DNA of 64,000 nt, from contig NC_134032.1 of the NCBI RefSeq assembly GCF_964204645.1, positions 2,628,175 through 2,692,174 of the forward strand. The letters run 5' to 3'. The notes beneath the pieces were generated by a model. That model worked only from the letters and a program-made list of their open reading frames with translations, did no database searches and was not told the DNA's origin. Source of the stretch: Tubulanus polymorphus. Taxonomy: Eukaryota > Animalia > Nemertea. Both the position numbers and the translations under genes were made by a program. Shown one piece after another: positions 10,001 to 61,529 of this stretch (its first letter is position 1; the number at the start of each line of letters is the position of its first letter).

Positions 10001-12960
10001 TGAAAGAGCTGCAGCAATTGTAAGTTATGAATTTCTAGGAATACAATAGGTTAATTTTCCTCAGCTTAAATTCAATTAATTACTTTCTATCTTTGTGGCA
10101 AACTTGAGACGCCGAGTTTGATTTAAGCTAAGTAGCTAAGTTGTGTAGATTTGTCGCGGACTCGTTTCGCCTGTTCGGAACACCCTGCACCCCGTCGGAC
10201 AATCTGCTGTTTGTGCCCAGCACCCCTTCTGTACCCATCTCCCAGACAATCTGCTGTCTAACATGAAATTGCTTTTTTTAGATATAAACGAATGCGCTTT
10301 AGGGCTCGACAAATGTGGTCACGTGGGAACGTGCGTCAACACTGAGGGTTCCTATCGGTGTAACTGTAGCGACGGTTATGAATTAAGCGCCGACCAGAAA
10401 CGATGTGACTGTAAGTTCCATCATTCCAATCGCTCTCGTCGATTATTATTCTCATTCCTCATTCTTCTTGTTTTTCCCTCTCCCTCTTAATCTCCCTCTC
10501 CCTCCCTCTCAATCTCCCTCCCTCTCCCTCTCAATCTCCCTCACCCTCCCTCTCTTTCTCAATCTCCCACTCCCTCCTTAATAAGAAAGCATTCTCAATT
10601 CTATTTTTGTTTTGCCGGTGAATATTTTACACATCCCAGTTTTACAACAAAGCTGATAGCACTCCTAACTTCACATTTTAATCAAAAGCACGGCGATTAA
10701 CATCCTCCAGAGATTGCCACGGTACGAAACCCTGCCACACTAGACCGAGTGCGCAGTTACACGCGAAGCTTAGATGATGTCATTATCAGCCAATCGGATA
10801 TCCCGTTTGATTTAAGCTCGGGTTTTCCCTTTTATAGTTCGTACGTGAAAGCGATTAAACAACGAGCAATCGCATTGGTGCCGCAAGTTTTTGTGCGGCA
10901 AAGTTGCGCGTGTACTTGCGCACCTGGTCTAGTGTGGCAGGGGTTCGTACTGTGGCTGAGTGTAGCGATGTCATTAGGTTCGAATCCCTGCCGCGGGAAG
11001 ATGGGTGATAAAAGGGCCTTTTCTATTCCTATTTCATACGGATGCAGTTTCAGCGAATTGTGGTTGGATCCCGGTGGGAAACAACAAATGTTTCAAGATT
11101 TCTGCGCTTGCTAGTACGTTCAATCGGACCAAACTTTGTCCCGGCTTTTCAATAGCTGAAGTGGAGAGCTGGACTGAAAATCAAGCGGCCAGAAGTAAGT
11201 ACAGAAAAGAGTCGATGATGATACACCTGGGTCTCGTACGTAGAAGGCAAGTGTGCTAACCCGTAGACCAATCGAACCAGACCAAGTTCGGTAGATATGA
11301 GCTTCTAGTTGTCCGTCGATTTACATTTTTACTTTAATAAGATCACTTTTAATAGTGACGATATACAAATTCAAGATACCTACCGACCATCTTCGCCCAA
11401 CCTTCTTCGCTTTTATTCGGATTGAGAAAATTGCGATTTTGAAGTTTATAACCGTTTTCATTAGGGCTCATTCCCGCAGACTACGGATCAACGTGGCTTA
11501 ACTTCACTAGACCGTTTACAATGGTGAGTCTATTTGGTAGTTAGTAGCTTTTCCATGTAAATTGATTAACTGGTTATATATATATATATATTCAAAAGAC
11601 CGTATCAATGTTGATTTTGATGGCTTTATCAGGCGCCCTCGAGGGGTCCACTTAACTAGACATGGGAAAAATGAATTACGATATTAGCTAGATGAATTTT
11701 GCCACCAAGACTTTTCAGCGACAAATATTTTGTCAATGTTTTCTAACAAACTAGTTCATTCATTCCATTCATTGATATACTCCAGCACATTAGCATTCGC
11801 TAGTATTGTTGGAGCGTGCGCGTCTGTGTTAAAAGAGGAAGGAAAAGAATGTGCATGGAAAATCTGATTAATAATAATGATAAAAGAGATAATGTACATT
11901 TTTAAAAACACTCAACAGGATTTCGGAATAAATCTAGGGTTGTGCCACAGATACCAGACTCCTGAAGGATACGGGTGACTGGGTAAGAACATCTAATGGA
12001 GGGAGAGTATTCACTTGGGCTTTGGAAATTGCTTTTGGAAAAAAGAGTACTTGTAGCAGTGTTTGTAGTTTCTTGAATGCTTAGAAACGACGCTATTTTC
12101 AAAAAATCTTATAATGGGAATAATTTATGGTTTTGATTATGTGGTCGGAAAGCGTCCATTATCGTATTCGAACATAAATTCATTGAGGAATAGGAAGTTT
12201 TAACAATTTTACGTCGAGCCTTTTTTGCTACCGGCCACACCTGCCTGGAAGGAAACGGGGTATTTTCATGAAATGGGATACCGAACAGATGTATTAGATG
12301 TATTGGGTACAGGTTAATTCTCTTTTTTGATCGATGTGTTGAACACTTCGGTTTCAGTTTGGATCCGATAAACAACCTTCCTAGACCAGGAAGTGACCTT
12401 AATGGGGACATGTTTGTCCATTGCCTAATCTAATGCCGACAACTTTACCCGTAGAGTAGAACATCATACTACTCCGGAAGCTAGCTCAATTGTCTTTCTC
12501 ATGCACATGACGTCGTGGTTTGTTCGCCAACCAGTTTGTTACTTACTCATGTTCGGAGTTAATATGGAAATTTAAACCATGACCATAGGGAGAAACTGAC
12601 CCCAACCAGACACGTCTGAAATTTGGCCCGTGTCAATTTAAAAGTGCACAATATTCACCAATTCGCATTCACACGAAGATTCATAATTTGGCACGGGCCT
12701 GGTCTTGCGTTTTGGGCGGACTATATTCTTCCCGTTTTAAACAGGCATGATTCCGGCACCTCCACGCGCGGGCTCAGGTCAGAAATTATCGGTGATTGCG
12801 ATGAATATTATTTCAGAACTACAGCAACTGGATGCGGGGAGAACCAAACAATCGGAACAATGAAGAAAATTGCGTCGAAATTCAACGCTCTTATGGCGCA
12901 TGGAACGATGAACGATGCACTTCCAAACTTGTGCCTGCTGTTTGCTCGAAGGCTTGCTAA
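4042..12960 (+). CDS. Secreted multidomain protein: signal peptide - TSP1 - EGF - C-type lectin - EGF half - Ca-binding EGF - C-type lectin (10 exons, one apparent 1-bp frameshift)
   Basis: GT-AG exons 4042-4135 (hydrophobic leader), 4949-5137 (TSP1: WGGWSPC..TCGGG.QTRYRSC), 6719-6843 (EGF), 7955-8092, 8364-8419, 9183-9369 (CTL1: EPN, WND; then CSCRGGY..C), 10282-10410 (DINEC..CVNTEGSYRC), ~11048/11054-11194, 11465-11523, 12817-12960 (CTL2: EPN, WND, stop). All phases are compatible except exon 3, which is 125 nt. Confidence 0.85.
7785..7820 (+). mobile_element. Orphan Helentron/HINE-type 3' end
   Basis: GCTGCTTTGCAGC hairpin followed by TATATT, nearly identical to the terminus at 19358-19376. 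Confidence 0.5.
9408..9897. repeat. 33-bp minisatellite, ~14-15 copies, intronic
   Basis: Unit CAGACAATCTGCTGTCTGTACCCTGCAACCCCT; degenerate copies also at ~10180-10260. Confidence 0.95.
10716..10956. mobile_element. MITE with ~55-bp imperfect terminal inverted repeats
   Basis: GCCACGGTACGAAACCCTGCCACACTAGACC at left; GGTCTAGTGTGGCAGGGGTTCGTACTGTGGC at right. Confidence 0.75.
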
Positions 12961-16351: not shown

Positions 16352-17365
16352 TTATCTTTTCGATGCATTACAAATAGTAGTTAAGAGATCTTTTCTAAAC
16401 TGTTCGCTACTAGCCAGATAAATAAAACCATTCAAAACATGATTCGCCCTATATAGTAGAGTTGCACCCACGTGGCCAAAAAGTACAAACCAAGCGTATG
16501 AGCCGAATAGTCTACAATTAGGGACATAATATGTGGTGGTTTCCTCCAACGAGCCTTTCTCCAGAACTAACGTGTCAAATAGACACATCGGGAAAGTAAA
16601 ACACAGGAACGCTAACGCTGTTGTAACGACTAAAGCTGTGATCTTATTCGACGCTCCTTGTTTTTTATAGGATGCAGTACCTTTGGCGACAGGCAGTTTA
16701 GCTGATTTTCGAACTGATGAAATTATTATCCAATTAGCTACGGAGATAACGACAAAAGGAACATAAAGGGATATAGTATTTGTAGTTGCGTAGTAAGCAA
16801 AAAGTACATATTTTTCTACAATTTGACAGTTTGTCCAGATTCTATATTTAATTGACTCAAACTGTGAACACCAGCCGAGATTCTGCACCGTCAATAAAAC
16901 TGCCGTAACGAATAGCAGTTTGCAGCTGCGTTTAATCGTACAGATAGACACTGCTTGTAGGGGTTTAGGCACAGCTTTAGCGCGATCTATAGTCATCAAC
17001 ACTAGAAACCATATAGCGATCTGACTTGGCCCGATCTTGTGGAACTGCTTCAAAACGCATTCGACATCGTTGAACGGGTGTCCGAAGTAGTTCATCAGAT
17101 ATTGAGTTTCAACCGATACAATAGCGTACAGATCGGCGACACCGATGACCAACATGTGGAAATAACTGGTACTAGACGCCGAGCGTTTAAAAGTGCCCAA
17201 AAGTACGATACCAAAGTTAACGCATCCAACAGCGGGAAAAACGAACGCCAAATACCAACGCATGTCTCGACTGATATAGGCCGCGTCGTTAAACAATCTG
17301 CGTAAACGTTTACAAGCTTGCCTACGAGCCAACTTACTGGACATCAGTGAATCCGTTATATTCAT
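16352..17365 (-). CDS. Intronless rhodopsin-like (class A) GPCR, orphan peptide/chemoreceptor type
   Basis: 337-aa ORF with seven hydrophobic segments: TM2 VADL, Cys at top of TM3, MTIDR, TM6 FLCFTFP, TM7 NHVLNGFIY, helix-8 FRKDL. Confidence 0.9.
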   Translation of the reverse strand: MNITDSLMSSKLARRQACKRLRRLFNDAAYISRDMRWYLAFVFPAVGCVNFGIVLLGTFKRSASSTSYFHMLVIGVADLYAIVSVETQYLMNYFGHPFNDVECVLKQFHKIGPSQIAIWFLVLMTIDRAKAVPKPLQAVSICTIKRSCKLLFVTAVLLTVQNLGWCSQFESIKYRIWTNCQIVEKYVLFAYYATTNTISLYVPFVVISVANWIIISSVRKSAKLPVAKGTASYKKQGASNKITALVVTTALAFLCFTFPMCLFDTLVLEKGSLEETTTYYVPNCRLFGSYAWFVLFGHVGATLLYRANHVLNGFIYLASSEQFRKDLLTTICNASKR

Positions 17366-18344
17366 CGTGGTATTGTTGATAAGTGACGCACGTCACAAAA
17401 TCCTCAAATAGCACGGAAGAGTTTAAAACCATGGCGGAAAACCGACACTGCTCCCAGCAAAGATACTAACGATAATGATAATTTCCTTCTTACATAGCAC
17501 TTTGAATATAAAATCATTACAGCGCTTTATACCAAATTGGAAAGCATGTCGATCAGAATGAACTGCCATCTCATAATGTTATTGAACTGAACATGTCTCC
17601 TCGCATATCAGAAAATCAATTCCGATTTACTACAAGGGATATAATAGAAATAATTTGATATTCAGTCTTTTATATTACAATCACAATTTCATTTGCAGGA
17701 GGTATTACTTACATCTAATTGAAAATCAACTCTCACAAACCTCACACAATTTAATTAGATAGGCCTTATAGCAAGCGTTTGTGAATGTGTAAAATATAAA
17801 CGCAACTATATTGAATATCATTATTCTTTGTCCAAGAATTCATCATAAATTGTGAAAGTAAAACTTCTGAACTGGTTGGAAAATATATTCATCAATTATA
17901 TACGGGGACACGCATGTCGAAATATGATCAGCTCATTAGAACCACGTATTTATAATCAAATCCATAAGAGAAACAAGTGTTGTGATTACTTTATAGTACA
18001 GCCCTATCAATGATATTAGTCATAATTAGAAAAATAGATAAAATGCATGTACGAAGATCTAGTTATTGAGATCCAGAGAGAATATCCAGATTAAGCTATG
18101 GCACTGACATGGGACATGCAACCATACGGACCTGATCCGACTGACGAGAGACAACCACAATAAACAACGTGCATTGGAACTAAAGTATACAGAAATCAGT
18201 ATCAGTTATACTAGGAAGAAACATGGTGAAATAGCATCACATTATCCGGTTTGCTCGACTACAGTAGTAGAAATTGGGCTTTTCATACCAGAGGTATGAG
18301 GCATGTTGTAAGTAGGTTTTGGGTAAAAATACTATGTAAAATAT

Positions 18345-22300: not shown

Positions 22301-23364
22301 AGCTCATACAAATTTTAACGAGGCCTTCTTTCATGGATGATAATGCTTAAATGAATGATTTGTATGAATATATGCCCAGTTGCACTGTCAAAGAGCCTCA
22401 TCTGGAAACCATGTCATTCAAATTTGCTCCATTTGTAAAGTAATAGTCTCAGCCTACGGCCTTCCTTTATTGCACACTTGCACACTCACCCTGCCCCCTT
22501 TTTGGTATAATAATGTAACTTTATTGTTTATGTCCGGCATGTGCATTTTGGTTTCGTTCTTTTTGTAAATTTTCCTAAAATGTGCATTCGTGCGCGGTGG
22601 CAAATCATTATGTAATGTATATAATTTCATAAAGGTAATAAACTTATGCTATAAAAAACGAACTGATATATACGGAACTGACTCTGTCAACACTCGTAAA
22701 AATACGTCAATGTTACATAAAAAATCTTTTGATTTCTAGTTCTTCCTTTATGTTCTTTATAAAAACTTTACTGAGATTCAGTATTTTCTTGTTTACTGGA
22801 AGTTTTCTAAGAACTCGCTCTGGTGAGCTTTGAGATCATATTGTAAGCAGGACAGACAATCTTTTATTTGTTACAAGAAAAGTCTACTTTTCTTATCTTT
22901 TTTTAGATTCCGAAATCATAAATCCGAAGCAACGTCACATAGTGACTGGTCGGTCGAGATTTTGTTTAAATCAAAGTATCTATTTGTAGGTGTAGACCTT
23001 GCCGAGACATCACTATCGAGTCCGCGCATGCGCTATGGAAGTTGAAATTGTTTTGAAGGATTCAATACCATTATTTGTTAAAGGGTAACTGACACTTTTT
23101 TTTTATTTCAAAATTCGATAAGTTCTATCGAACTAAGGAAGACTTTGAAATAGTTCTGTTCAAAAATGTGTAGTTTCCGCGAAAATCGTGATTTTGTAAG
23201 ACAACTTTTGACCTCATTTCGTTGTATACATCGCGTTAGAAATCATCGGCAATTTCCGTCGATCTCCGGCGCTGTGACGTCAATAAAGTGAGCACTGAAA
23301 ATTCTCTTCTATGAAATAACGTTGCGTTTTTACTACTCGGCGTGTTTTCACTGCTTTTTCTCAA

Positions 23365-25953
23365 ATGCCAAATCGTTGTGTTTGCTTTGGGTGCGATTAT
23401 TCGGATAGGGGTATATTTCTTTTTCCGAAGAATCCTGTTCTTCGAGAAAAATGGGCTTCTTTTGTAGGTTTAAAGCGATTGAATTGGAGCGGCCCAACGT
23501 CGAATAGCGTCGTGTGTTACCGGCATTTTACCAACGATGATTTCGTTAATAAAATGCAGTATGATGCACAATTTGCAAAGAGGTAAGTTTCATTCAGTCA
23601 TCTTAACATTTATTCGAGACATGGTTTGAGAATAATTATTGTATGGGCTTGAAAATCACTGTTAAAAGGGTCGCATTTTCAAGTCCAATTCAAATCAATA
23701 AAATTTATTTTTTCCACGCGCGGTATCCAATTCATAATTTTTTATGTCAAAATGCCGTTTAACTTTTGTTTGCTAAGCGTGATTGTAAAACCATGCCTTC
23801 TAGGTCAGCTTACATCGTGTGACAATAGAAACATCTTTTCATTGAACTACTACTATAGGCCACAGTGCATTGGCCATCGTACAATAGGCTTTTATTGTCA
23901 TTGTGAGTGCCTTACTTCACTCACTAACTACAATAACAAAATGAATATTTCACGAGCCTTGTGAATTAACGGTTGCCTTTTGCTTGAAATAGATTGTTGC
24001 TGAAACAAGGAGCCGTGCCATCGATCCACACTGTGATAGAAACCCCTGAATCTACATCTCAACCAGAGGATTTCTTCTCGCCACCACGAAAGCCTGGACG
24101 AAAAGTGTTTGAGAAGAGGGAGAGACGGCGAGTCATTGCTGAGACTGAGAGCCAGGTTTTGCATAATCTTCAACCAAATTTGGTTGAAGATTATGCAAAA
24201 CCTGGTGAAGATGACGGCGGGGAAGTGTATGCGGAACCCGGTATCAAATCAGAGTTCGAGGCGACAAGAGAATTTGCTGTGCAGGCTGAACCGGATTGTA
24301 AATCTCGAGGTAGGATTTTCATGATGGTATGGTGTATCATTGTCATTCAGTTTTGAATATATCACTGTAATCATTGAATTTCATGTTATTTAATGATAAT
24401 TTTTTCTAGGGATGCAAACGCTGAAAGAAACTGCACAGGTGAAGACCAAAATTGTGTACCGCATCAAACCTAAGATTATCTACAGAACGCCATTTAAGGC
24501 TCAGCGTTCAGTTGGAATCCAGGAAAATGCATTGAGTGAGTATTCTTTATTCAGTCTATATCGTATTATGGTACGGCTTGTATTATGGGGTTTTTTATGA
24601 TATCATCTATTCTCCCTATCTATTTAATCCTACTACTGTGATTGGTCTGTTTTAGCCCGAAACATTGGTATTCAATGTAAGCGACCTGCTGAAGAACTTA
24701 CAAATACCTCAAAAGCCATTTGTATTGGAGAAGAATCAGATTTAGGGAGTGACAGTGAAGATGATGACTATCATCCAGATTCGGCAGAAGAGTCAGAGAT
24801 GGACAGTGGCTCTGAGGATGATTCTGAAGGCAGAGTTATGTTTGAAGAAATGAGGTTAGTAAAGTATAATATTTTAATCATGAATGAACGTTGTTAAAAG
24901 TAAGTTCAAAAATTCTTTGTGTAGAATTTACATATCACTCACGGAATCAAAAATGAGACGAAATACTAATTTTTCATTTCAAGGTTTAACTAAGAAACTA
25001 GAAATAATGTCAAGGAAAAAGGAATGTGAAGAAATCAAGGATTGGATAAAGTCAATAAAATGTCATTTGTACTGGTGCGCTGCATCATCATCACCCAGGG
25101 ATAAAGAAGGCATCAGTAAAAAATGGTCATCAGCAGTCAAACACATCCAAGACAATCATGAAGACTGCAGCCATGAACCCATAACATCAGAAAAGAAATG
25201 GCTTTATCCAGGTAAGATATTATCTATTGCAACTACTGAATCAGAAATTATATCTAATTTCATGTGATGAAACATTTGATGTACTATTTACAGGATCTTT
25301 GGTTGGTGATTCTATGCAAAAATATCTGACGAATACACGGGTTATAAATAAAGTGAAGATGATGTCACCATACGGCCAGACCAGTAAACTGGAGTGTCTT
25401 CACAGTTTATTCAATCATTTTGCCCCGAAGATGATTCAGTTTTCTTACAATGGAATGACAAGCAGGTAAGCAAAGTATATAACAATTGAGTGATTTCTAT
25501 TTTTTCATACATATGTCCCTGCTAAGACTTATATCAATGTCTTATGTCTTCTCTTAGGTTACAAATAGCTGCCCTACATTTCAATGAGAATAGTGACAGA
25601 ATACAAGGCACAAAGATTGATGGGACAAAAAAATATAGCATTGTCTATCCAAAATACAAGGACACCCACACATTACGAAAACTACTCACTGATGCCACTT
25701 ATGGTGAATATTAAAGTCATTAACTAAACTTATGTAAATAATTCATTACCAAACACATTGTTGGCTAACAGTGTTTTTTATTTCAGAATATGTCGACATT
25801 TGCTGGAACAAGATACTCGAGGACGTGGAAGAAGCAGATAGGCCGAGGAAAATAATCACAGTACCACCAAATCTCACATCAAACAAAGAAAAAATCACCA
25901 AAGAGGAAGCCATCGCAATGCACAGGACAAGATTCAAAAAAACTAATAGATGA
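23365..25953 (+). pseudogene. Kolobok THAP-domain transposase lacking the central catalytic exons
   Basis: Exons 23365-23582 (THAP C2CH: CVCFGC..FP..W..CYRHF), 23993-24309 (AVPSI), 24410-24535, 24656-24854, then ~24984-25211 (HLYWCA), ~25294-25465 (QTSKLECLHS), ~25559-25704 (AALHFNEN), ~25789-25953. Phase-2 donor at 24854 meets a phase-1 acceptor at 24984, and the first catalytic Asp motifs are absent. Confidence 0.85.
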
Positions 25954-26947
25954 TTGAATGGTAAGTCTCTTGACATTTGTATTGAAGGTATAATTTCATT
26001 TAAAATTGTAATACATGCACATGAAAACATGACAATTATATTGATTTTCTTAAAAAATACATTCTTTTTAGGTCTGCGGAAAAAATGATGACCCGAAGTG
26101 ATGATTTAATTCGAAAAATAATGTACGAAGAAATATATTTGAAATTTGGCAGTTCAAAGATACCGAGTACGTTTTATTTCAACATCAGGAATCATGATAT
26201 ATCTTGTATTCGTTTTATAATTCAACCTAAAATATTTTTCATGTCTTTTTCAGGTGATAAAGACAAAATATCTACATTTGCATGGGAAGATTAATGGTGA
26301 AACTACAAGTCTAAGTGAAAGTTGTAGACACCAGTTCACTCAATAAATGATCTGTAGAAAATTGATAGGAAACTGAAAATAAAATTATTGATCTGCTTAA
26401 GCATAACAAAACTGCTCCTTACTTGAACAATTAATTGCGATCAGATGTTTAAATTAGAACTCAATGGATTGAAAGCAAAACGTTTTATACATTATAAATA
26501 TGCAATAAAATTTATATTTTATATCTAAGCGATGTCATTGTTTTATTAAAATATCTGTAAGAAAAGCACAAGTTAAGAAGAATATATAAACATCGTTAGA
26601 ATTTTTAAGTTGAATTCTTCTATTTTAATTCATTATGGTCCATCTGTGACAGTGGTATTATTGAGTTTCAACAGCAGTCTCAATTCATAGGCAGTGCTGC
26701 CATCTTCTAACGATATCATAAACTATTCCGCATTCATTATCCAACTCATTCAACAGTGCCATCTTTCGTGATAAAACTTTCGAACTTTGTTCCAGCGTCA
26801 GCTTTCATATAACTTTTTGTACTGAGATTGAACCTTAGGAAAATTACGACTAATGCGCGTCAGTTGCTCGTAAGTATTTGCTTCTGCGAGCAACGACTGC
26901 CGCTGAAGAACATAATTCAAAGTTAATGTTACATTTTTCTGGGAAGC

Positions 26948-27263
26948 TGTCACGTATAATGTCCTTTTGTAATTATTTCGGTTGAATAATGATATTTTTA
27001 TGGGCAACGCTGTTGCGCTAACGACAAATTAACGGGCTTTGGCAATGTCGTTCGCTAATGAGATGGGTTGGAGAATTGACTATATATACTGGGGTTTTTT
27101 GGACCGTGGGGGAGACCGCTAGAAATTTTTAGATCGTTGAGATCAGTTCGTGAAATAAAAGTAATTTTGAAGACAGGAACTCTGTGTGTTGCGACTCGTT
27201 TATTCTTGGACGTTTGTTAACATTCTATCACTCAAGTGGAATTCAAAGATCCCGATAGTGACA
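26948..27263 (+). mobile_element. Gypsy-type LTR (single copy) followed by a primer-binding site
   Basis: TGTCAC...GTGACA termini, TATA-like ~27082, AATAAA 27154-27159; TGGTGGAGAA at 27266 is complementary to a tRNA-Ala 3' end; gag follows. Confidence 0.85.
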
Positions 27264-27546
27264 AATGGTGGAGAACCTGGCGGGCATTTTACTTGAGTGA
27301 GGTATCGAGCTATTTAACAAAACCAACGGAAACAAAGATAATTCACTGGAACAATACAGGAAGTAGGAACTCGAGAAACGCACGGAAAATGGATTTTGGT
27401 AAATATTGAACAATACTTGTTATTTAATTTTGATTTCGTCGTGTGCGTAGAACAATTTTCTGTGGATAGACCGAATATTTTGCTGTCTCCTCCGGTCTAT
27501 CGTACATTTAATTGACTTAATATTGAAGAACCTAGAAATTATTTGA

Positions 27547-28523
27547 TTGAATTTGTGTATGCCGGTCGAAACGAGGTCTGGAATGGACCGCGCTTTGGCA
27601 GATAGACTAGCTGAAATGACAGCCAAAATTGACGATAAGCCAATGGGCATGACTCGTCTACAACCGCCACAGTTTACCGGTACGGTAAGCGAAGACGCTA
27701 ATATTTGGTGGCGGCAGTTCACCCAATATTCTACTTTCATGGGCTGGACCAATGAAAAGAAACTTAAAGCAGTGGGGCTGTTTTTAGATGGACTTGCTTC
27801 GGCTTGGTATTGGACCGTGGTCGAGGCAAGCAAGTCAAAAGACGCAACCGTTAAGACAACGGCGAATAGTATCTTATCAGATATTGACAACTTTGAAAGG
27901 GAATTCAAAAAGAAATTCGATTCTGGATCAATGAAATGGGTGCGTGAGCAAAGTTTAATGAACAGAAAACAATTACCGGGGGAATCGTTGGACGTCTATC
28001 TTCAAGACATCCAAATACGTTCGGCGGCTCTTGAAAAGAACGATCATGATTTAATGGTCCTATTTATCAATGGCTTGGCGGACAATTTGAGAGCGTTTGT
28101 CGTATCTAGATCACCAACAACTATGGACGAAGCCGAACAATACGCGCGCTTGTATGAATCCGTGTTGGCGCTGCAGGCGAAACCGCCTCCAATTGCCGGC
28201 ATCATATCATCCACTGAGAACCGAAATGAAATTTCGGATCTCAGGGATGAAATCAGGAATTTAAGCCGGGAAGTCTCGAGACTTCAGGTACAGGTCCGGA
28301 GGCAGGATAATAACCTGCCGCCACGAACTTCAGATCTGCTTCCGGATCTGTAGTTTGTGGTAGATGCAATCGAGTTGGGCATCACGAACGTAATTGTTTT
28401 AGGCAGAACGGTAGTTATCGGCCGGATAGACGGTTTAATAATTCTAACAATAATTTCGGTAATCGTTCCAACGATAATCCTAATAGATTCAGGCCGGGAA
28501 ACAACCCCAGGCCCGGATTTTAG
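27547..28523 (+). pseudogene. Ty3/Gypsy gag with CCHC knuckle, 1-bp frameshift
   Basis: PPQFTG, LDGLASAWY, RKQLPGESLDVY, FINGL; after a frame change near 28326, CGRCNRVGHHERNC and an Asn/Arg-rich tail ending in TAG ~28523. No pol follows. Confidence 0.88.
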
Positions 28524-28653
28524 GGGATGATTCCGAGCCAAAACATTCGTTTACAAAAGGTTGCCTAATATATTCATCAGAGATTTTACTGTTTTAATTC
28601 CTGCTTTGTTTCTCGTGTTGTTGTTCCTGTTCTTTGTACGTGAGTCTGTCACG

Positions 28654-29126
28654 ATGTCGTTAATCGTTCATCTTCCACGCGTGAATGGAGAATTCGAGGC
28701 AGGCATAGCAGCCGGCGTCGATCCCCGTCTCGCCGACACTGACAAGCTCCCGATACATAACGCTGGAGATCACCAGGAAGCAAAGTCCATCGCCTGTGCA
28801 TGGCTCTACCACAAGTATCGAGCATCAGCAAGCGATGAGGTACTTGCAGTTTTGATGGGAGGAGTCATAGGTGGTCTGGACCTAGGGCTTTTCTCTAATG
28901 CGGATGGAGACGTGCTTGTGTCCAACCATGCTACTATATCGGCAACCGCACCAGAGCTGGAGACGTTTGTTAAGGATAAAGTTAGCATGGACGCTGTCCG
29001 TAAAGGAGTTACTTTGGCCATAGCTACAAAGGCAACTTGGTGGGCCATGAACCACCACACAGGCCAGGGCCGAGCGCAGGGCTACGCGAGAAAAGTGATG
29101 AGCACCTTTTTTGGAGAATCCAACGT
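28654..29126 (+). other. Endogenous viral element: 3'-truncated ORF resembling a negative-strand RNA virus (qinvirus-like) nucleoprotein
   Basis: ATG at 28654, ~158 stop-free intronless codons, visibly higher GC than the flanks, motif IATKATWWAMNHHTGQG; ends at the right TIR. The family assignment rests on recalled motif similarity, not a search. Confidence 0.65.
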
Positions 29127-29182
29127 AGATGGCAGCACTGCCTATGAATTGAGACTGCTGTTGAAACTCAATAATACCACTG

Positions 29183-30129
29183 TCACACATCAATCGACAC
29201 ATTACGAAATCCTTTATATACATGGTCCTCCTCATAACCGTCCTCAGGGAAATGTGCGCGGATGCACGAAACGACACAAGCAGGCAAAATTCTCCTATTT
29301 TCCTTGCCCAAATATCCCCAACACCACCGAACAAATGATCTGTATGCTACATGTCTTAATTTCGCATTTGCTGGCCCTTCAAAACTTTTCCGTCCGTACT
29401 GCCGTTTAAATTCGGTCCACATCAGCTGCAGGACCCAAGGGTTCAAACAGATCGAAGCGAAAGCTGCTGTGTCCGTCATGCAGGTCTCTTCATTTTGTCC
29501 GGACTCCTCCCAAACCCATTCCAGTCTTCTTTTCACGACATCAATCTCCATACAGCACACACACACTTGCTCCGTCTCTAAGATCTGACAGTGTCCACAT
29601 TGGCACCTAAAAAGATTATCCATAAAAATATTTTTAAGGTATGGATATAGGTATCTACTTGTTGTAAGCCTATGCTGATGCAATGCAGTGCAAGAATAGT
29701 CCAGCAGTGCCAGCACAACGACGTTGAATCGCACTGAGCTTTTGAAACGAACATGATAAGATTCTCTCAACTTCGCCAACAAAGCTCAAAAACCCATAAT
29801 TAAATCTACGGCTTAATGAATCTTAAAATATATATTTTTAAGTTAATTGTTATATGAACATACCACTGATTCAGATTATCCAGCTCCAAACGGTTTATTC
29901 GGCCTTCGTCGTCGTCTCCCTCTGCCTCCGGTCTGGGTCCATCGCCGTTTCGCTTCGGTTCTGCCTCTGGTTCGTATAAATACGGCCCGATCATTAATTC
30001 CTCTTCGTCACTTGTTTCCTGCCATTCAAAATCACTAAGCGATTCATCTGAATTTGATGCCGAAGTGGCATTAAATTCAGATGAATCGCTCCCATTGTCC
30101 GATTCTCTATTCATTTCTATAGACGCCAT
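29183..30129 (-). CDS. KolX: KolX accessory protein of Kolobok (P2X7 C-terminal 'ballast'-like Cys-rich domain)
   Basis: join(30129..29864, 29606..29183), GT-AG phase 2, 229 aa. Acidic N-terminus, WCQCGHC..CVCC.E, RHVAYRSFVRWCWGYLGKENRRILPACVVSCIRAHFP, YKGF. Confidence 0.9.
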
Positions 30130-31384
30130 TATTGAGTCGCTGCCTTTAATGACGTAGTTCTATAAATAGCCCGCAGTACACGTGTTTTTCCGGAACGATG
30201 TAAAAAAACGAGGCGCGCGAAAATCAAAATCATCAAATATCATTATAAATTGAAATTTTTTCCGATCTTTCAAATTGTCAATCTCAATAGTATACTATAA
30301 TGAATCATTTTATTCCAAAAGTAGAAAATTCTTGAAAAAGTGTCAGTTACCCTTTAATTTGTCCCTTGTTCAATGACATGCGCGCAGCGCACGTTATACC
30401 TTAAAATTGGACCGAGTCATTTAAAACTCTGCCAACTTGTAAATTCTACAGGAAGAACACTTTTAGATCGATTGTTATACTGCCATCTTGTTGAAAGCAA
30501 TTTTCGCGAATTTGTACTTTTTGCTCGACGCAAATTATTTTTTTTTGTGCAATAGAATATGAATAAATGAATGAACCGCAAATATTTCAGCTTTTCAACA
30601 TCGATGGTTTTGCGTCACCGTTTCCATCGTTTGCTATTCAGAGGTAACACTTTTCATCGTCGAATATATTTGTATAGGGACAGGGTGGACCTATCCAAGG
30701 TTTTTGATTACTGCTTAGCTGCGGAAGGGCACCTTTGTCATAGAAAATTTTGGGGCTCTGAGAGGCAATCTGAATCAATTTGGGGCATCATATCCCTTGT
30801 CTGCATCCACTAAATATGACATTTTGACATGTTAAAGACAAATCATTGATAAAAAAAGAAGTTTACCCATTTTCGACTGTTCACATTTGTAATTTTAAAA
30901 TCTATTCTACCTGAACTTCAAAAATAAAAGGACACTTCTTATCTTCAATCATGAGTACCGTTCAAGCGGTAGTAGCGGTAGGCTGGATCCGTCACTGAGG
31001 TATTATCCCCGACCCTTGACTCCCATTCAGTCTGTTACTTGACGAATTTTGTTTTGTAATGCTAAGATTTCATATGGGGAAGTACCCGGTGTAGGTTATG
31101 ATTCTTGCGAGAAAAGTGATCGCTGATGACATCTATATCAACTGCTGCTAATAAAGCGAATTCATCCTGTCAAATCAGAATTGATTTTGCTCTTTGCTGG
31201 CCGCGTGTCATTCGATCGAATCAGATTTGCACAGCAGGATAAATTTTACGATTTGTTAAAAACGACGGACAAGAAAATACTGTCCCTGATTTTCTATTAT
31301 TATTACTAGTACGGTATTTCTATTCTATTATTACTAGTATTTCTACTTATGCATACAAATCTATATAGTTCTATCTATTTGATT

Positions 31385-36500: not shown

Positions 36501-37501
36501 CGTTTTCCTACTCCGATGGACAGGGGTAGGGGTAGTTCAATGTAGACATTTATATGCGGACATGGGGGAGGGAGGTCAAAACTTTGAAATTTAGCGTGGA
36601 CGTCTTTTGTTGAAAAACTCCTTAAGTTGTTTCAGTCGGTAGATCACCATTATAAACAACAATTTTATTCTGGTTGTTTTTATTTGATTGTTTTCAGATT
36701 GTGGTGACAGGAATGTGTGCAGTTATAACGCTTTGCTTTATCCGGTCACCTGCAGTTGTTGGTGCGATAGAGTTTTCGTATATTCCGTCAAACCGTACGT
36801 TAACAGAGACGATTCATGTTCGCGTAAGTGTCTCGAAGGTTCTCACGAGATCCCGTCGCGTTTCCCGAAGTTTCAAGCGAGGATCTCGTATGTTCCTCGC
36901 GAGAACCTTTGAGAAACGATACAGGATCTCGCGAGATCCTTCGAGAAACGATACGGGATCACTAATCGTTTCTCAAATGTTATCGCGAGATCTCGTAATT
37001 TTCTCGAGGGTTCTCGCAAGATCCATCTGTACAAATACAATATTATCCTTAACATACAATTTGTATCACATAATTCGTTATCGACAACATTACGAAATAT
37101 GTTTTATTTTTCAAGGCGTTGATAAACTTCATTTTCTCGTTTGTTCTGTAGTAAATTGTACAAAAGTGAGAAAGGATGAAAGTGTGACGCAACAGTTTGA
37201 CGGGATCGATTCTAACCTGGAGATGAAGGATTTAGAAGCGTCTTGTATGACACCGGATACATCTCCAACAACTCCGGCTCCAACGACTCCAGTTCCAACG
37301 ACTCCAGCTCCAACGACTCCAGTTCCGACGACCCCAGCTCCAATGACACCAGCTCCAACGACTCTCGTTCCAACATCAACAACGACTCATAATTCGAAGA
37401 TAACTTCGACTCCAAGTACCAGGACTCCAGCTCCAAGTGCGCCACATCCAGACGAGTCAAACGGTAGGGTATCTCTAGCAGCCAGTGAAGATAGTCACTG
37501 A
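33533..37501 (+). CDS. Divergent CAP (SCP/CRISP-like) protein with EGF-like domain and Thr/Pro mucin-like stalk; first and last exons unresolved
   Basis: Phase-compatible GT-AG exons 33533-33608, 34067-34164, 34782-34872 (YWDTVLSRMAENYASTC), 34966-35153, 35375-35463 (KLGCGLKAC..LVCN), 36324-36412, 36698-36823 (EGF-like), 37152-37462 or stop at 37501 (PTTPA/PTTPV repeats). Confidence 0.8.
36828..37025. repeat. Intronic palindrome-rich repeat (CTCGCGAG motifs), MITE-like
   Basis: Recurrent TCTCGCGAGA/GGATCTCG motifs in both orientations. Confidence 0.5.
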
Positions 37502-39568: not shown

Positions 39569-40905
39569 TTAAAGATAATGCGGAACGCTTTCTTCTGGAG
39601 AAGTTCCAGCTTTCATAAGTTTGAGATGGCAATAAATGAAAGAATAATACAACTGCAGTAAAGTTGTTTTTGACAAAATTCCATAAAGTCTACCCATTAT
39701 ACAAATGAACCGTAATAGTTTAGTACAGATGCCATTCATTTGTGACTTCCAAGTAAGCTGGTCGTCAACTTGAACGCCTAGAAATTTTGTTGTCGAAACT
39801 TGTGATATAGACATATTGTTGATTTTGATAGAAATTGAGTGTTTATGTTTAGCACGACTGAAAAATATGAAATGAATCAAATTCAATGAAAGCCTGTTTG
39901 CCCGAAAACAGATATTCAGTTAGTGTAGTTCTGTATTAACTATCATAGTTAACTCGTTAAAATATTGATATGAGAAGTGAATACACTGGCATCATCAGCA
40001 AACATGATAAAATTAAAAACGCTTGATGCGTTTACAAGATCATTTATATATAATAAGAAAAGGATCGGCACCAAAATAGAACCTTGGGGCACACCACATA
40101 ATACATGATAGGTAGTGGTAGTAGTCTCTTTAAAAAGAACAGTCGGAAAACGGTTTGAAAGATAATTTCTAAACCAGAGTAATGGCGTACCTCTGATGCC
40201 ATAATGGCAAAGTTTTGACAATAAAATTTCATGATTCACTCTATCAAATGCACGCGAAAGATCTAGAAATATTCCTATAGTAGATTTGCCATTGTCTAAA
40301 TTATTGATGATTTTATCTATGATAACAGTAATTGCCATGTTGGTGGAATGGTCTTTCCTAAATCCAAATTGACATGGAGATAGCATTTTATACTTGTCGA
40401 AAAAACTTTTTTGTAAACTACTTTTTCTAAGATCTTGGAAATACATGGTATTGATATTGTTTAGGTCTGTAGTTTGAAAAATGTGAAACATCTCCCGATT
40501 TGAACAAATGTAATATCTTTGATATTTTGAAGCATTCAGGTACTTGCCCATTAATCAAACTTAGATTTAAAATATGAGATAACGGCAGAGATATAGCGTC
40601 AATTACTCTCTTGAGGATCTTTTGATTGATACCATCATGACCAGTGTTATTACTATTTTTAAATTTTGAAACAATATTTTTAATTTCTAAAGAATCTGTG
40701 AGAGAGAAAAAGATATCATTTTGTTGTGGCGGACCCAGAAAAGAGAAAAATGTTAGTAGGTAAAATATCATTGGCTAAATTTGGACCCGCTTGTGCAAAA
40801 CACTTATTAAATTCATCGGCTATACTAACATTATTTTTGTACATCACACCATTCTGTTCAAAACATGCGAAAATTTAGAATTTGACGATGTTATATTAAT
40901 AAGCT
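39569..40905 (-). mobile_element. Degenerate LINE (CR1/L2-group) reverse transcriptase
   Basis: GHDGI, NYRP, QFGFRKDHST, FLDLSRAFDRVNH, GVPQGSIL, FADD, KFLGV; frameshifts and stops; cut at the Helentron end. Confidence 0.92.
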
Positions 40906-43555: not shown

Positions 43556-46500
43556 ATGCCTAAAAGGAAAAGAAGAGCTGGTAGCTTTCAGCCGAAGAAG
43601 GTAAGACCCTCTTTTCATAGGCAAATGTTAATCTTCTAGTAAGAAGTATGTAGGCCTTTTTTCCGAGTAAAAAATTCATTAAACTGTTCATCACATGTGT
43701 TAGCTGCGCAATATTTTGGTGCCTGATTTTGGTATTTTATCAGAAAAAACCATATCAGTAAATCATAAACCAGTTGCTTAGAGGGTGTGTAACTGACCAG
43801 TGTCGTATCATCCCTGGTTCTTGTTGAGATAATTATAAGCTATTGAATTGAATTGAACTCATTAGAAAATTCTACGAACGTATAGTGAATGAATTTTTTT
43901 TCTATTTTCAGAAGGTGGAGGTGGTTGGAGTTCCCTCAGCCCTAACTGGACAAAACAGAGATGAAAAAAGGATCAATGGAAAAAAATTATGAAAAATCTC
44001 AAGATGAAGACTACAGAAGAGTTGAAAATGAAATCTTAAATGAAAACCTAAAAAACGCTCAAAATGAAAACTTTAACGAAACGCAAAAAGAAAACTCTGA
44101 TAACAATCAAAACAAGAAGTATGAAGTGAAAATCAATGAAAACTTTGAACCAAAAACTAATGAGAACTATGAATTGAATGCAAATGAAAAAGATGAAATG
44201 AAAATGACTGAAAAACATGGAATGAAAATGAATGCAAAATATGAAATGCATATGAATGGAAACTATGATTTGAAAACAAATGAAAAAGATGAAATGAAAA
44301 TGACTGAAAAACATGAAATGAATATTAATGAGATCTATGATCAGACTATGAATCAAAATTGTGGAACTAATTCGAATGAAGATATGACAAAAAACAAAGT
44401 TAAGACAATTGAAGTGAAATCAGTTTTTTGTGACTTCAATCATGACAACTGTGATACGATTATGCATGACAACTATGATAAGACTAAACAAGGCAACTAT
44501 GAAAAGGCTATATATGGAATCTGTGAAAAGATTACACTTGACAACTGTGATAAGATTTAACATGATAACGCTGGTCACAATATACATGAAACCTCATCGA
44601 AAATGAAAGCTGACTCATCTATTCAACCAATTTCGAGTATGATTTCGTGTAGAGATTGTGATGGCAATTTTGGTAACAGTGAGTCATGTTTAAGTGCTGA
44701 GAATATGAGATGTTCATCAATTCATGGAAATTTCCACCAGGGTCATCCAAAATACGGTATTCATTCAGGTAAGCAATGTGTAACAAATGCATTAGCTGCA
44801 ATGATTCATGCATCAAATAAAGCTGTATGCCTCATGATATTGATTCAGTATTGAATATTGGAAATGATTTATACGCAACATTGACTAATATGAATACAAT
44901 AACAAATATGTATTTATTGATCAGTGAGCTACCAACTGCTGTTGAGATTGGAAATTCCATTTATAATGTGACTGTTGGATCCCCTCAAGTTGCTATATCT
45001 GAATTATCTGATGAAATGAGAGCTGGAAATTTTGGAATTATCAGTGAACTACATGAATGTTTGCACAATAATCTGCTTAATTACGACACATGCTTTATAA
45101 CATTTGCTGGAAATACATTTTGTGTTTTAAAACAGGATGACATGTACTGGGTATTTGATTCACATTCGAGAGATGCATCAGGAATGATGCCCGCTGATGG
45201 ACATGCTGTATTAGTAAGGTACTCTTGTGTTAATTGTATTGTCAAACATTGTCAGAATCTTGCAGCTTCAATGAATCAGAGGCAACCAATACAGTATGAA
45301 ATTACAGTGGCTTCTATCAACCATGAAATTGAAACTACTGTAGAGAATAGCATTATCGAAACAACGACTACATACTCTCCAAACTACCAACAAACAAGTA
45401 GTGAAGATGAACTGCCCTATACAAACCCAAAAGTAGATGAATGCGATGTAATTGTTACTAGTGAATCCGTGCAGCATGATGATTTAATTTACAACCCACT
45501 AGAAAAAGGTCAGTGCAAAACATTATGCTCTATTCTAGGTATTCATTGTCGACCCTCAACTCTCGGATATGAATGTATGCCCAAATATGATGGACAACTC
45601 TACTCTCCATGTAATACGCAGAAAATTAAAGGCGATGGAAGCTGTTTTTTTCGGGCAATTTCATATTCAATCTGTGGAACTGAGCAATATCATCGGGCTA
45701 TACTCACCGAAGTTTTAAAGCACATGCGGCAGAATTCCGACAAATTCCAACCACATCTGAGAAATCCACAACTTACTATAAATGAGTATATTGATGAATC
45801 CCGTATGAAATATACAGGTACTTGGGTGACAGAGGTTGAAATTCTTGCAACAGCTGATTTACTGCATGCTGATATATATACATTTGTAGGCAATGGTTGG
45901 TTACGATTCGCTGGTTCTACTTTCAGTGCACCAAATCGTGTGTGTGAATTAAATGGCAACATTTATTTGAAAAATTGCAGAGGTGTACAATATGAAGTTG
46001 TGTCATGTGTGAAACAATCTGAGGAATGTATTTGCTCTTGGTGTGGCAAGCGACGAAATACTGAAAAAACGGATGATAAAAAAGCCCTGAAAAGGCAGTA
46101 TAATTATCAAAGATATCATGAAGATGAAGATTACAAACAGCACAAACAGAAATTAGCATGTATGAAATCAAAAAATGACGAGGCCTATCGTTTAAATCAA
46201 AACCAGCAGAGGCAAATCAGATACAATGATGATGACTCGTCTTATCGTAGAACGAAGATGTCTAGTACTCTTAGAAGATACTATAATGATATCAATTATA
46301 AGCAAAAGGTAAATAAGCGAACATCAGAGAAATACAAAAGTGACGTTGACTTCAGAAATAAAGCTAAGCTTTGTAGTATTCAGAAATACAAAAGTGATGA
46401 GCAACATCGAGCACAACTAAGAACTAACAGCATCGAGAAATATCATAATGATGAACAGCATCAAGCCCAAGTTAAATCTTACAGCATTGCAAAATACCAA

Positions 46501-46937
46501 AATGATGAACAGCATCGACGCCAAGTTAAATCTTACAGCATTGAAAAATACCAAAATGATGAACAGCATCGAGCCCAAATTAAATGTTACAGCATTGAAA
46601 AATACCAAAATGATGAACAGCATCGAGGCCAAGTTAAATCTTACAGCATTGAAAAATACCAAAATGATGAACAGCATCGAGCCCAAGTTAAATCTTACAG
46701 CATTGAAAAATACCAAAATGATGAACAGCATCGAGGCCATGTTAAATCTTACAGCATTGAAAAATACCAAAATGATGAACAGCATCGACGCCAAGTTAAA
46801 TCTTACAGCATTGAAAAATACCAAAATCATGAACAGCATCAAGCCCAAGTTAAATTTAACAGCATTGAAAAAACCGAAATGATGAACAGCATCGAGCCCA
46901 AGTTAAAACATTCAGTGTTGAAAAGTATCAAACCAAC
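43556..46937 (+). pseudogene. N-terminal part of the Helentron polyprotein: basic leader exon, low-complexity repeats, herpes-tegument-type deubiquitinase, OTU protease, 18-aa repeats; disrupted
   Basis: Exon 43556-43600 (MPKRKRR), acceptor at 43912; GNFHQG..GKQCVTNAL and FDSHSRD; KGDGSCFFRAIS..W.TEVEI. Stop at 44558-44560; frameshifts near 43985, 44827 and 46870. Confidence 0.85.
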
Positions 46938-46945
46938 ATGCAACA
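46375..46945 (+). repeat. 54-bp coding tandem repeat (YSIEKYQNDEQHRAQVKS), ~10 copies
   Basis: Direct reading of the near-identical units. Confidence 0.95.
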
Positions 46946-49900
46946 TCGTGATAAAATGAAAAGACTAAGCATCAACAAGTATGCAGGTGATCCTAAAATC
47001 AAGGAAATGGTTGTTGCTTCCACAAGATCACGTCGTGAAAATGAAAAATTGAAAAAGAAAGACATCAACTATGTGATCAGTGAATTTCGACGTGTATCTA
47101 AAGACGGTCCTGAATATGTCTGCTCTGTGTGTCATCGACTCTTGTTCAGAAATCAAGTTAAAGATCTTATTGAAAACAATTACACTACTCATGGACCTAC
47201 ACATGCTGAAATTGCTCAAAAATGTATAACAAATACATATCTACATGTCTGCAATGAAGATTGTCCAACACCATGCACCTTGAAAACTGAACCATCAATT
47301 AAGCAGTGGATTTGTCACAATTGTCATCATAAGTTATTGATGGCTAAGATACCATGTGAGGCTGCTTGCAATAATTTGCAGTTAGATAGAGTTCCAAGAG
47401 AATTATCACATCTGAATCCACTGGAGGAGCATCTTATTGCGATAAACATTCCATTCATTAAGATGATTGCTTTGCCGAGGCAAGGACAGCATGGTTGTCA
47501 TGGGCCTGTTGTATGTGTGCCAAGTGATGTTAAAAAAACTACTACAATATTACCTCGTGATTCATCTGATGATCAAATGATGAAAGTTAAATTGAAACGC
47601 AAACTCACGTACAAGGGTCACTATCAGTATCAGTTTGTTGACCAGAAAAAAATCATGGATGCTCTTACCACTTTAAAATCAATTAACAAACACTATCGTG
47701 ACATTGAACTGAACCAAGACTGGACCAATTGTCTTGAAAAAATTGATGAAGAATCAGAATCTGAAGTGCTCTCAACTGATAAATCGTCGTCCAATATAGA
47801 TGAAAGCTGTGTGAATTCCTTACCTACTGCTAAGAGTGAAGCAGATAAGGAAACAAATGGAACTGATTCACAGGAAGAAACCGAGGCAGAAAATCTACAC
47901 GAAATGTATATGAATTCATGTCTACAACCAATTGATATTGGTCAAGAAATTCTTGATGCACACTTTAATGATATTTTGTGTCCGGCACCAGCTGAAAATA
48001 ACAGCCCAATACAAATATTAACCGACAAAGAAAATGAAGCCAAATCATTCCCCACATTGTTTCCTACTGGAAGATTCACTTATCATGCTGTTCGTGATGA
48101 AAGAATCACTCTCGCACGATATTTACATACCCGATTGATGAACGCTGATCCAAGATTCTCTCGAAATACTGACTTTATTTTCTATTCACAATTTTTGTCA
48201 GAAATTAATCAGGTTGCATCAAATGTATCGATAGCGCTACGAAAAGGAGTGAAAGATAGCACTCGGCAATTTCATGTCGGATTGGATAGTCTAAGAAATC
48301 TCAAAGACGTGAATGATATCTTCAAGTATAATGATGGCTACAAGTTTTTGAAACCAATACGAGGAACACCACCATTCTGGCAGGCTGCTCAAAAAGACTT
48401 ATTGGCTATGGTTCGGCAATTAGGTGTCCCTACATTTTTTGTGTCATTTTCAGCCGCTGAAATGAGATGGAATGAACATTTAGAAGCTATAATGCGAATC
48501 GATGGATGCAATAAACCAGTTAGTGAATTGTCATGGTCTGAGAAATGTGGTATTTTGAGACGCAATCCTGTCACTGCTGCACGCATTTTTGATCACAGAT
48601 TTCATACATTCCTTAATGATGTTATCAAATCCCCAGCGCAACCTATTGGTGAAATTCAAGACTTTTTTTATCGAGTAGAATTCCAGATGAGAGGCAGCCC
48701 ACATGTACATGCACTGATATGGGTAAAAGACGCACCGAAATCAGGAATTGATGACGACGCTAATGTCACCTCGTTTGTAGATCGATATATCACCTGTAAA
48801 TTACCTGATGATTCTGAGGATCCTGAATTACATGAAACTGTAACCAGTGTCCAAATGCACAGCAAAAGACACTCAAAAACATGCCGCAAGAAAGGTACTA
48901 AATGTAGGTTTAATTTCCCAAAGAATCCTTCATTACAAACATTTTTGACTCAAGAAAAATACGAACCCCCACCACCACCAAGTACTGATGAATCGAATAA
49001 TGAAGAACCATTAAATGAACAAATTGAGGCAGCTAGCAATGCAATGAGTCCCGATCAAGCGAAAGAAATATTACAGAAAGTGTGGGAATTGATGAACAAA
49101 GAGGATACTGATTTATCAACTACAGAATCACTGTACAGATCAATTGGAATCACACAAGATATGTTTGAAGAAGCTTATCGTTGTTTATCACGTAAGAGTA
49201 GTGTCGTTTTGAAAAGGGAACCAAATGAATGTTGGGTAAATCAATACAATCCTGCATTATTGAGAGCCTGGCAGGCTAACATGGATATACAGTATGTGAC
49301 TGATGCATTTGCATGCGTAGTATACATAGTATCGTATATCTCAAAGAGTGAACGAGAAATGGGTCTTTTATTAGAACACACAAGAGCGGAGGCTGCAGAT
49401 AATAATCAAAGCGCGAAACAAGCCATGAAATCATTAGGTTCAACTTATCTCCATAATCGTGAGGTGTCAGCTCAAGAAGCAGTGTATCGAGTTTGTAATC
49501 TAAAAATGAAGCAAGGATCTCGAAAAGTTCAGTTTATTCCTACAGGTGACAATATCATTAAATTAAGTAAACCACTGAGCGTATTACAATCAAAAAGCGC
49601 AGATCACGATTTGACTGATGATGATGTATGGATGACTGGCATCGTAGAACGATATCAAAATCGACCTGATGATGAGGAATTTGAACAAATGTGTTTGGCT
49701 CAATTCTGCTCTGAATATAGGATTCTCGCAAAATCTCAAGTGAACAACAGCAGCATAGCATTGAAAAATGAGAGTGGATATATCAGAAAGAGAACCAACA
49801 CAGCCCCGGCAGTTGTCAGGTATGCTAGATTTTCAAAAACAAAACAACCTGAAAAACATTATCAAACAAGTCTACAATTATTTCTGCCATATCGTCAAGA

Positions 49901-58009: not shown

Positions 58010-58245
58010 TTGTAGGTTACCACCTTGTACGATCGCGCAGTTTTTTTGCGGTTGTCCTAGGCCGATTTGGTCCGGGGATGAGTCCGCGGCCGTGCGCGTG
58101 TTGTGTGGTCGCGGCTGTGGAGGGACATGGCGTGTTGTTGTGGCAACTGAGAAGACAATGGATGAAATGCGTGCGTGTGGAAGGCAGGCTTTGGCGATTG
58201 GTTTGGTACTGCAATGGGCGGGGCGTGACGTCAGGGCGCGGGTAA
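58010..58245 (+). promoter_or_regulatory. CpG-rich promoter-like island upstream of the OB-fold gene
   Basis: High CpG density; GGGCGGGGC GC-box directly followed by TGACGTCA (CRE) at ~58216-58233. Confidence 0.45.
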
Positions 58246-58551
58246 TATAGGTGTTTGGGTGATGTGTGGGTACTAGCATTGTGTATTAATAAAAGGTCTG
58301 CGGATTTGGTCTTTAGTATATAGTCGGTGTTGTTTTGATTGCAGTGATTCATTAGGCTCGCGGATAGATACGGATAGTGGATTGTTGTAGATAAAATAGT
58401 AGATTGTTGATCATTTGGAGTTTGTTCTTAGCGGTAAGTGTTTAGTTGGGTATAAGAGCTGATCTGCACCTCTTTCGTGATGGCAATATACTGAATTGCA
58501 AGTCACTGTTCTAGCATCAGAATGTGTAATGAAATCCTATGCAGTGATTTA

Positions 58552-61309: not shown

Positions 61310-61529
61310 TTGTACGTATGTGGTTTGAATATTTGTGGGTAATGGTTATGCAATGAGGGAATTGTGTGATGAATGTTGTATTTTTGTTATTGCAGTGGTG
61401 ATTGCTGTGGTTACGGACATTTTGGGTGATAGATGTATGGATATGAATATGTAAAATATACCAATCATTGGAGCGTGGTATGCGGTTGTACTATGGGGAG
61501 GTGTGTTAATGTTTGTGGGAGGTTGATTA

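Follow-up and report, generated by a model that had tools for sequence, protein, structure and literature searches.

A qinvirus-like nucleocapsid fragment between a Gypsy-type retrotransposon half and an inverted LTR start in the genome of Tubulanus polymorphus

A copy-choice hybrid between LCMV and an IAP element has been described in mice (Geuking, 2009; PMC3205384), and SINV/CFAV-Ty3 hybrids have been reported from Aedes cells together with a CFAV endogenous viral element (EVE) that is flanked by LTR and gag sequences (PMC6797480). In mosquito EVE-LTR pairs, virus and element lie on the same strand in 543 of 614 cases (10.1101/127498), and in Bursaphelenchus xylophilus the nodavirus EVE eBxnv-1 resides inside a Bel/Pao element (PMC5177903). 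LTR-mediated retrocopies of host mRNAs are likewise documented in animals (Tan et al., 2016; PMC5131818). For non-retroviral RNA viruses, germline entry has mostly been inferred from decayed EVEs in LTR debris or from hybrids formed in cell culture.

The Qinviridae are negative-sense RNA viruses whose S segment, 1.6–1.9 kb in length, encodes a nucleocapsid protein (N) related to paramyxovirid N, and whose virions and replication are unknown (PMC10721934). Qinvirus-clade EVEs have been listed for a basal hexapod (PMC6955108). Within the 64,000-nucleotide stretch of the nemertean Tubulanus polymorphus genome analysed here (the window), a 586-nt piece of a qinvirus-like N gene is joined on its left to the 5′ half of a Gypsy-type LTR element and on its right to the first 61 nt of that element's LTR in inverted orientation. 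This arrangement is judged, with good confidence, to be a hybrid likely produced by reverse-transcriptase template switching onto viral RNA and likely inserted by integrase as one unit of 2.5 kb. Public sequencing runs under the same species label were consulted for this locus; five of the ten listed cover part of the window, and a genomic run, X6, was added, of which ∼12% was read.

Identity and extent of the viral fragment

The foreign insert occupies positions 28541–29126 (586 nt). From an ATG at 28654, 158 codons run without a stop as far as the inverted repeat, within an open frame (28531–29409) that continues through the repeat into the flank. Mononucleotide shuffles of these 474 nt were free of stops in 10 of 20,000 cases, and the GC content of the viral frame is 0.52, versus 0.30 in the left flank and 0.43 in the right. 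An intronless, stop-free and GC-richer frame beginning at this ATG had been described in the initial annotation of the locus, and is borne out by these values. The ∼90 nt of T-rich, UTR-like sequence said to precede it are indeed T-rich (41% T across 28524–28653) and hold no ATG, but the leader, as delimited by composition and by read continuations, is 113 nt long (28541–28653, forward strand), and the insert begins 19 nt ahead of the start first given (28560). This foreign leader is inferred to be a viral 5′ untranslated region. The gene behind it, assigned through phmmer, a family profile and the fold of a relative, comprises the N-terminal 158 codons of a qinvirus-like nucleocapsid and is truncated at its 3′ end (28654–29126, forward strand).

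A phmmer search with the 158-codon frame retrieved 171 protein clusters at E ≤ 0.001, 69 of them at E ≤ 1e-10. The best match is an unnamed protein (E 3.6e-23, 41% identity), and the nucleocapsid of Shahe qinvirus-like virus 1 was matched directly (E 1.3e-6), with 28% identity across 166 aligned columns. The top matches align from their own residue 1, which identifies ATG 28654 as the authentic start codon, and the median length of 374.5 aa among the 150 relatives listed of the 171 implies that the fragment represents about 40% of a full protein. The motif from which a viral identity had originally been guessed recurs in a relaxed form, K..[WFY][WYF]..NHH.G, in 120 of the 150 listed relatives, the Shahe qinvirus-like virus 1 protein among them. 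A profile built from 98 relatives, with both the query and the Shahe protein left out of the build, recovered both, with an E value of 6.7e-49 for the query and of 8.2e-87 for the Shahe sequence.

Thirty of the 150 listed matches were looked up, 20 of them among the top 33 and a further 10 selected for a length close to that of named qinvirus proteins; 26 of the thirty lie on contigs of 1.3–2.4 kb, which corresponds in size to a qinvirid S segment. One of the thirty is the Shahe protein, one a hypothetical protein of Formica fusca and one a sequence that clusters with a Popillia japonica protein, the rest being unnamed or hypothetical. Three relatives of qinvirus N (P0010, P0157, and P0027) are annotated as host hypothetical proteins of Formica fusca and Popillia japonica and are likely to be unrecognised EVEs; in P0027, a DUF7869 domain is fused to the N-terminal half of the nucleocapsid.

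The fold was approached through a full-length relative, P0005 (model pLDDT 86.4), and the structural kinship to mononegaviral N described here is that of this relative rather than of the fragment itself. Against BFVD, the P0005 model gave eight matches at E ≤ 0.001, comprising Sanxia, Wenzhou, Frankliniella, Beihai sesarmid crab 4 and Shahe proteins (qin-like or ICTV-type), one unnamed entry, Xinzhou nematode virus 3 and lastly a yue-like protein, with E values from 9e-20 to 5e-13 for the five named, the unnamed and the nematode-virus entries. Against the PDB, the ten best rows are all mononegaviral N proteins (Z 4.7–5.6, rmsd 5.5–8.9, 193–260 aligned), each weak singly at a Z below 8, and Foldseek on the PDB returned no match at E ≤ 0.001. 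These fold matches agree with the ICTV profile of qinvirid N (PMC10721934). The query's own model is too poor to lean on (pLDDT 51); its fold search placed a qinvirus N first at E 0.14 and gave no match at E ≤ 0.001.

Pfam yielded no family for the query and none common to the N region of 35 relatives, and two word-index searches with the query alone, one among longer proteins and one among proteins near its length, produced no match. An alignment search with the query returned four proteins, none informatively named, IMG/VR gave 12 pattern matches of which none was confirmed, and a sequence-profile search of the PDB gave one irrelevant row. In a quick N tree the query sits on a long branch (1.04 changes per column) without a close relative, in a topology that has no outgroup, an unfinished careful search and 41 of its 65 inner branches open; the input was the first 230 residues of the top 69 matches, the query and the Shahe protein, reduced to 68 rows after three were dropped for late-starting alignments.

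The sequence matches and the modelled fold of a full-length relative support the identification of the frame as part of a qinvirus-like nucleocapsid gene. The Qinviridae are recognised by a bisegmented negative-sense genome of 7.3–8.2 kb with an L segment and by RdRp placement in Muvirales, and the assignment made here is that of an N fragment only; no RdRp domain was present in the 47 other frames scanned in the window. The qinvirus-like nucleoprotein proposed at first has nevertheless stood up well to the protein search and structure prediction suggested with it, in that the direct Shahe match, the profile and the relative's fold point to the same family and a viral nucleoprotein aligns with the frame, the NHH.G region included.

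The Gypsy-type carrier and its inverted end

The left part of the hybrid opens with a complete 619-bp LTR (26645–27263, forward strand, TG...CA) of a multicopy Gypsy-type element, delimited by loose read ends in X6. These number 83 before 26645, 52 behind 27263 and 17 behind 27264, and they agree poorly with one another, as is to be expected of the two ends of an LTR that sits at many sites. A PBS-like site beginning with TGG follows 2 nt after the LTR on the same strand (27266–27286, the right limit being approximate and taken from sequence); the window offers no tRNA genes for comparison with it. The gag gene (27562–28523, forward strand) ends in a stop and contains a frame break near 28325, where most X6 reads of other copies differ, followed by a CCHC zinc knuckle that is seen in the translation of the next frame. 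It matches PF03732 above the cut-off (E 5.9e-6) and PF19259 (Ty3_capsid) below its cut-off (E 0.0094). Past 28540, 65 X6 reads and contigs of X1–X5 continue with one other sequence, which indicates that the element was cut 17 nt after the gag stop. No pol, whose domain order (PR-RT-RH-IN) and RT phylogeny also define Ty3/Gypsy elements, is found in this copy, and the window contains no second copy of the element. The 4-bp target duplication described below is of the length typical of Gypsy, and together with gag it makes a Gypsy-type carrier likely; the Ty3/Gypsy features found are the TG...CA LTR with its PBS-like site, the Gypsy-type gag and the short target-site duplication, with a purine-rich, PPT-like tract ahead of the LTR start in X6 reads of some other copies.

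The right end of the hybrid is an inverted copy (29127–29187, reverse strand) of the LTR's first 61 nt, corresponding to the U3 end. Arms 26645–26705 and 29127–29187 are identical at 61 of 61 positions, and each is flush with a CATC, the left (26641–26644) and right (29188–29191) copies of a target-site duplication. In X6, 163 reads run from before 29127 into LTR sequence, which identifies the right arm as the inverted start of the LTR. A joint from 26640 to 29188, which skips 2547 bases and in which four letters fit both sides, is carried by 34 X6 reads as well as by X1 and X2 contigs; it represents the state before insertion and confirms the 4-bp duplication, a chance 4-bp match having a probability of ∼0.5%. 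The integrated hybrid thus measures ∼2.5 kb and consists of a single LTR, gag, the viral piece and the inverted arm.

A 2.5-kb TIR DNA transposon that had gained gag and the viral fragment in the style of a Pack-MULE or MITE and moved by cut and paste would likewise end in perfectly matching inverted repeats, here of 61 bp, next to a short duplication, and the repeat had initially been taken for such a TIR, with the Gypsy-type carrier, whose inverted LTR start mimics one, overlooked. The repeat itself is real, but its arm forms the beginning of a 619-bp LTR into which the 163 reads continue, a purine-rich tract stands before it in other copies, and the far end of the LTR abuts many flanks. Moreover, the insert is present at about one seventh of gag depth and has not been amplified. 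The 2.5-kb unit does not fit the pattern of a family of transposase-moved copies bounded by terminal inverted repeats, and this explanation, contradicted by the reads, retains very little probability. A DIRS-type element was rejected as well. Inverted terminal repeats are normal in DIRS-type retrotransposons, which make no target duplication; here a 4-bp duplication accompanies the insertion, and the 619-bp repeat behaves like a direct LTR in that both of its ends meet varied flanks in other copies.

A DNA-level rearrangement would require that a full-length element was inserted first and that its pol and 3′ LTR were later replaced, during break repair, by an unattached viral cDNA together with a scrap of LTR in inverted orientation. 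Mosquito EVEs have been reported among LTR fragments, with inversions (PMC8048955), and a multicopy family would keep LTR scraps at hand. However, the inverted arm stops exactly at the first base of the LTR and at the duplication, so that repair would have had to restore a proper attachment end with single-base precision where the old boundary lay. The two arms are moreover identical in all 61 positions. A later rearrangement is accordingly considered unlikely, and insertion of the hybrid as a single unit is the preferred reading.

Copy depth, age and genomic surroundings

In X6, read depth is ∼9x in the insert, 65x in gag, 167x in the LTR, and 43x and 100x in the two flanks. The LTR is thus ∼19 times as deep as the insert, and the insert stands at ∼1/7 of gag depth, which indicates that the hybrid was not amplified; such ratios vary widely among the runs of unknown kind. 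The insert is present in X1, X2–X4 and X6, that is, in three samples from two studies, from one of which the window itself may derive. One X1 contig, the only one to span the entire insert, matches 28511–29156 with zero differences, extending 30 letters past each junction and thus one short of the bridging rule. X5 covers gag with the insert uncovered and X7 yielded no matching sequence, neither of which is proof of absence. The shallow insert between deep flanks in X6 might suggest an assembly chimera, or contamination from an infecting virus. Against this, the flank depth is explained by a multicopy transposon, the insert recurs in genomic DNA reads from a second study (X6) as well as in contigs from two further samples, the X1 contig shows no difference across it, and an RNA virus would be absent from a WGS library, leaving an artefact with next to no probability.

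The captured RNA could also have been the transcript of an older qinvirus EVE or of a domesticated host gene rather than of a replicating virus, given that copies of qinvirus N stand in the Formica fusca and Popillia japonica genomes as hypothetical proteins and that host mRNAs are captured by LTR elements in a similar way (PMC5131818). A longer second copy of this kind should produce loose read ends at the inner edges of the insert; none are among those listed for X6, in which depth across the insert is flat. The frame is in addition intact, intronless and GC-richer than the host flanks, and the family profile detects no second copy of the viral sequence in the window. An older endogenous source therefore appears quite improbable, and capture from a replicating virus is preferred.

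At position 28629, all nine X6 reads (9/9) differ from the window, with which the X1 and X4 contigs agree, and at least two versions of the insert must therefore exist. At flank sites 29300, 29565, and 29795, the window is contradicted by 86 of 95, 89 of 92 and 86 of 94 X6 reads, respectively, which suggests a few copy-specific changes in ∼700 nt. These flank changes, the intact frame and the identical arms point to a young, inherited insertion. The recent infection and young element claimed at the outset fit the same data, within formal bounds that are loose (an intact frame allows less than 6–18% neutral divergence, and 0 differences in 61 arm positions less than 4.8%).

The hybrid sits inside a Kolobok Kol0-like DNA transposon (23078–30357) with TTAA ends, 23-nt inverted arms (23078–23100 and 30335–30357), a THAP exon on the forward strand (E 9.4e-10) and a KolX/P2X7-ballast gene on the reverse strand (P2RX7_C, E 4.2e-11). 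A TTAA target, 5′-RR termini and a KolX protein similar to the P2X7 C-terminus are given as the marks of Kol0 (PMC9587614), and all three are found here. By read depth this surrounding element is multicopy, and because the flanks are multicopy the empty site may stem from other copies of the transposon rather than from an allele. Its KolX frame loses the last codons only; read-through from this convergent gene may give antisense viral RNA. No splice joint of the neighbouring gene is among the joints listed.

Elsewhere in the window, Helitron-like frames of 712 and 1830 aa (44821–52361) carry OTU protease, Helitron_like_N, PIF1 helicase and endonuclease domains, and a second PIF1 piece lies at 203–577. 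A reverse-transcriptase fragment (39949–40554, reverse strand; RVT_1, E 1.9e-21) looks LINE-like by eye and is apparently unrelated to the LTR carrier. An intronless frame of 346 aa (16352–17392, reverse strand) encodes a rhodopsin-family GPCR (7tm_1, E 2.2e-14), and TSP1 and EGF exons (4876–10487, forward strand) probably belong to one extracellular-matrix gene. Taken together, the genes of the window are those of an animal. A 15-nt tandem array at 37236–37449 encodes a Pro/Thr-rich stretch, and positions 57001–64000 show a sustained strong skew of G over C (0.30–0.55) with internal repeats.

Proposed mechanism and comparison with known systems

Read along its minus strand, the hybrid comprises 61 nt of U3 start, antisense viral N with its leader, antisense gag, the PBS and the LTR. 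The components of the hybrid and the location of its two junctions are directly observed, as are the 4-bp duplication, the unoccupied site and the occurrence in three samples. An order of template switches can be proposed, and within the template-switch model one that begins with the plus strand is somewhat favoured. A plus strand primed at the PPT would copy 61 nt of U3 and switch to a co-packaged positive-sense viral RNA inside the N gene, copy that RNA to or near its 5′ end, and then jump to the element RNA 17 nt past the gag stop, from where it would run on as a minus strand through gag and the PBS until the left LTR was completed by second strand transfer in the usual way. Such a molecule would carry a U3 attachment end on both sides and would be accepted by integrase. 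Two U3 ends would have to suffice for integrase, and the presence of U3 attachment sites at both ends of the hybrid, bounded by a target-site duplication, argues that integrase used them. Against this stands the statement by Tan et al. that integrase requires both LTR ends (PMC5131818). In favour of the proposed order, Ty3 is described as re-priming its PPT several times, with a build-up of spare plus strands (PMC5371799). The earlier suggestion that the 5′ part of a positive-sense viral RNA was captured fits these data.

The same sequence would result from a mirror route, in which synthesis of the plus strand proceeds through gag, transfers to the negative-sense viral genome at its 3′ end and passes from there to plus-strand strong-stop DNA. 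Because negative-sense viral genome RNA is encapsidated, this order is judged less likely and holds a minor share of the probability. Because pol, a PPT and a 3′ LTR are all missing, no further movement of the hybrid is predicted, and it is most likely neutral.

The locus is valuable for preserving a whole integration product, in which the two points of template switching, the two processed ends and the target duplication can all be read, alongside the unoccupied site. Germline capture is thereby linked to integrase, the choice of the strand that switched is narrowed, and the plain geometry lends itself to searches of any assembly. A germline copy is also stronger evidence of a true host than a metatranscriptome contig. 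On a more speculative note, a PPT-primed plus strand that itself primes on viral RNA might generate two-U3 hybrids that integrase inserts, which would constitute an overlooked and searchable route to a germline memory of RNA viruses, marked by an inverted LTR stub that annotators take for a TIR; the viral gene, antisense behind a transposon gene, could then serve as a ready source of antiviral small RNAs, and the locus would be germline proof that a divergent qinvirus infected this animal. This broader proposal is tentative.

Compared with the N proteins of Qinviridae (Yingvirus), such as those of Shahe and Sanxia qinvirus-like virus 1, the fragment shares homology from residue 1 and the K..WW..NHH.G motif (PMC10721934), its relatives are proteins of 370–500 aa on short contigs, and one of them has a mononegavirus-like N fold. 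It differs in its identity to the named member (28%) and even to the best unnamed match (41%), in retaining ∼40% of N on a long branch, and in that an RdRp was not found in the window.

The copy-choice hybrids of viruses and LTR elements resemble this locus in the joining of viral sequence to the LTR and gag of a Ty3/Gypsy element, whereas here a duplication and an empty site delimit the whole unit, which closes on the right with the start of U3 in inverted orientation rather than with a direct 3′ LTR. Virus and element share a strand, as in most of the mosquito EVE-LTR pairs (10.1101/127498); the main text of a mosquito population study does not contain the terms target site, TSD, integrase or breakpoint (PMC8048955). 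A search of titles and abstract openings, in a collection short of subscription journals and of older retrovirus studies of abnormal cDNA ends, turned up no published case matching the mechanism or the inverted-U3 geometry.

Like eBxnv-1, the hybrid is a natural, recent and low-copy germline capture of a non-retroviral RNA virus in an LTR element, although the eBxnv-1 element has two direct LTRs, a PBS, a PPT and pol, whereas one LTR, gag and an inverted stub are found here, with a negative-strand virus and neither pol nor PPT (PMC5177903). The retrocopies of Tan et al. likewise have an internal region partly replaced by foreign RNA through two template switches followed by integration, but they keep both direct LTRs and can move again, whereas a switch to the opposite U3 strand, as proposed here, is predicted to be a dead end (PMC5131818). 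The capture of RNA viruses by LTR elements is already known, and the inverted-U3 geometry is the part for which the search gave no precedent.
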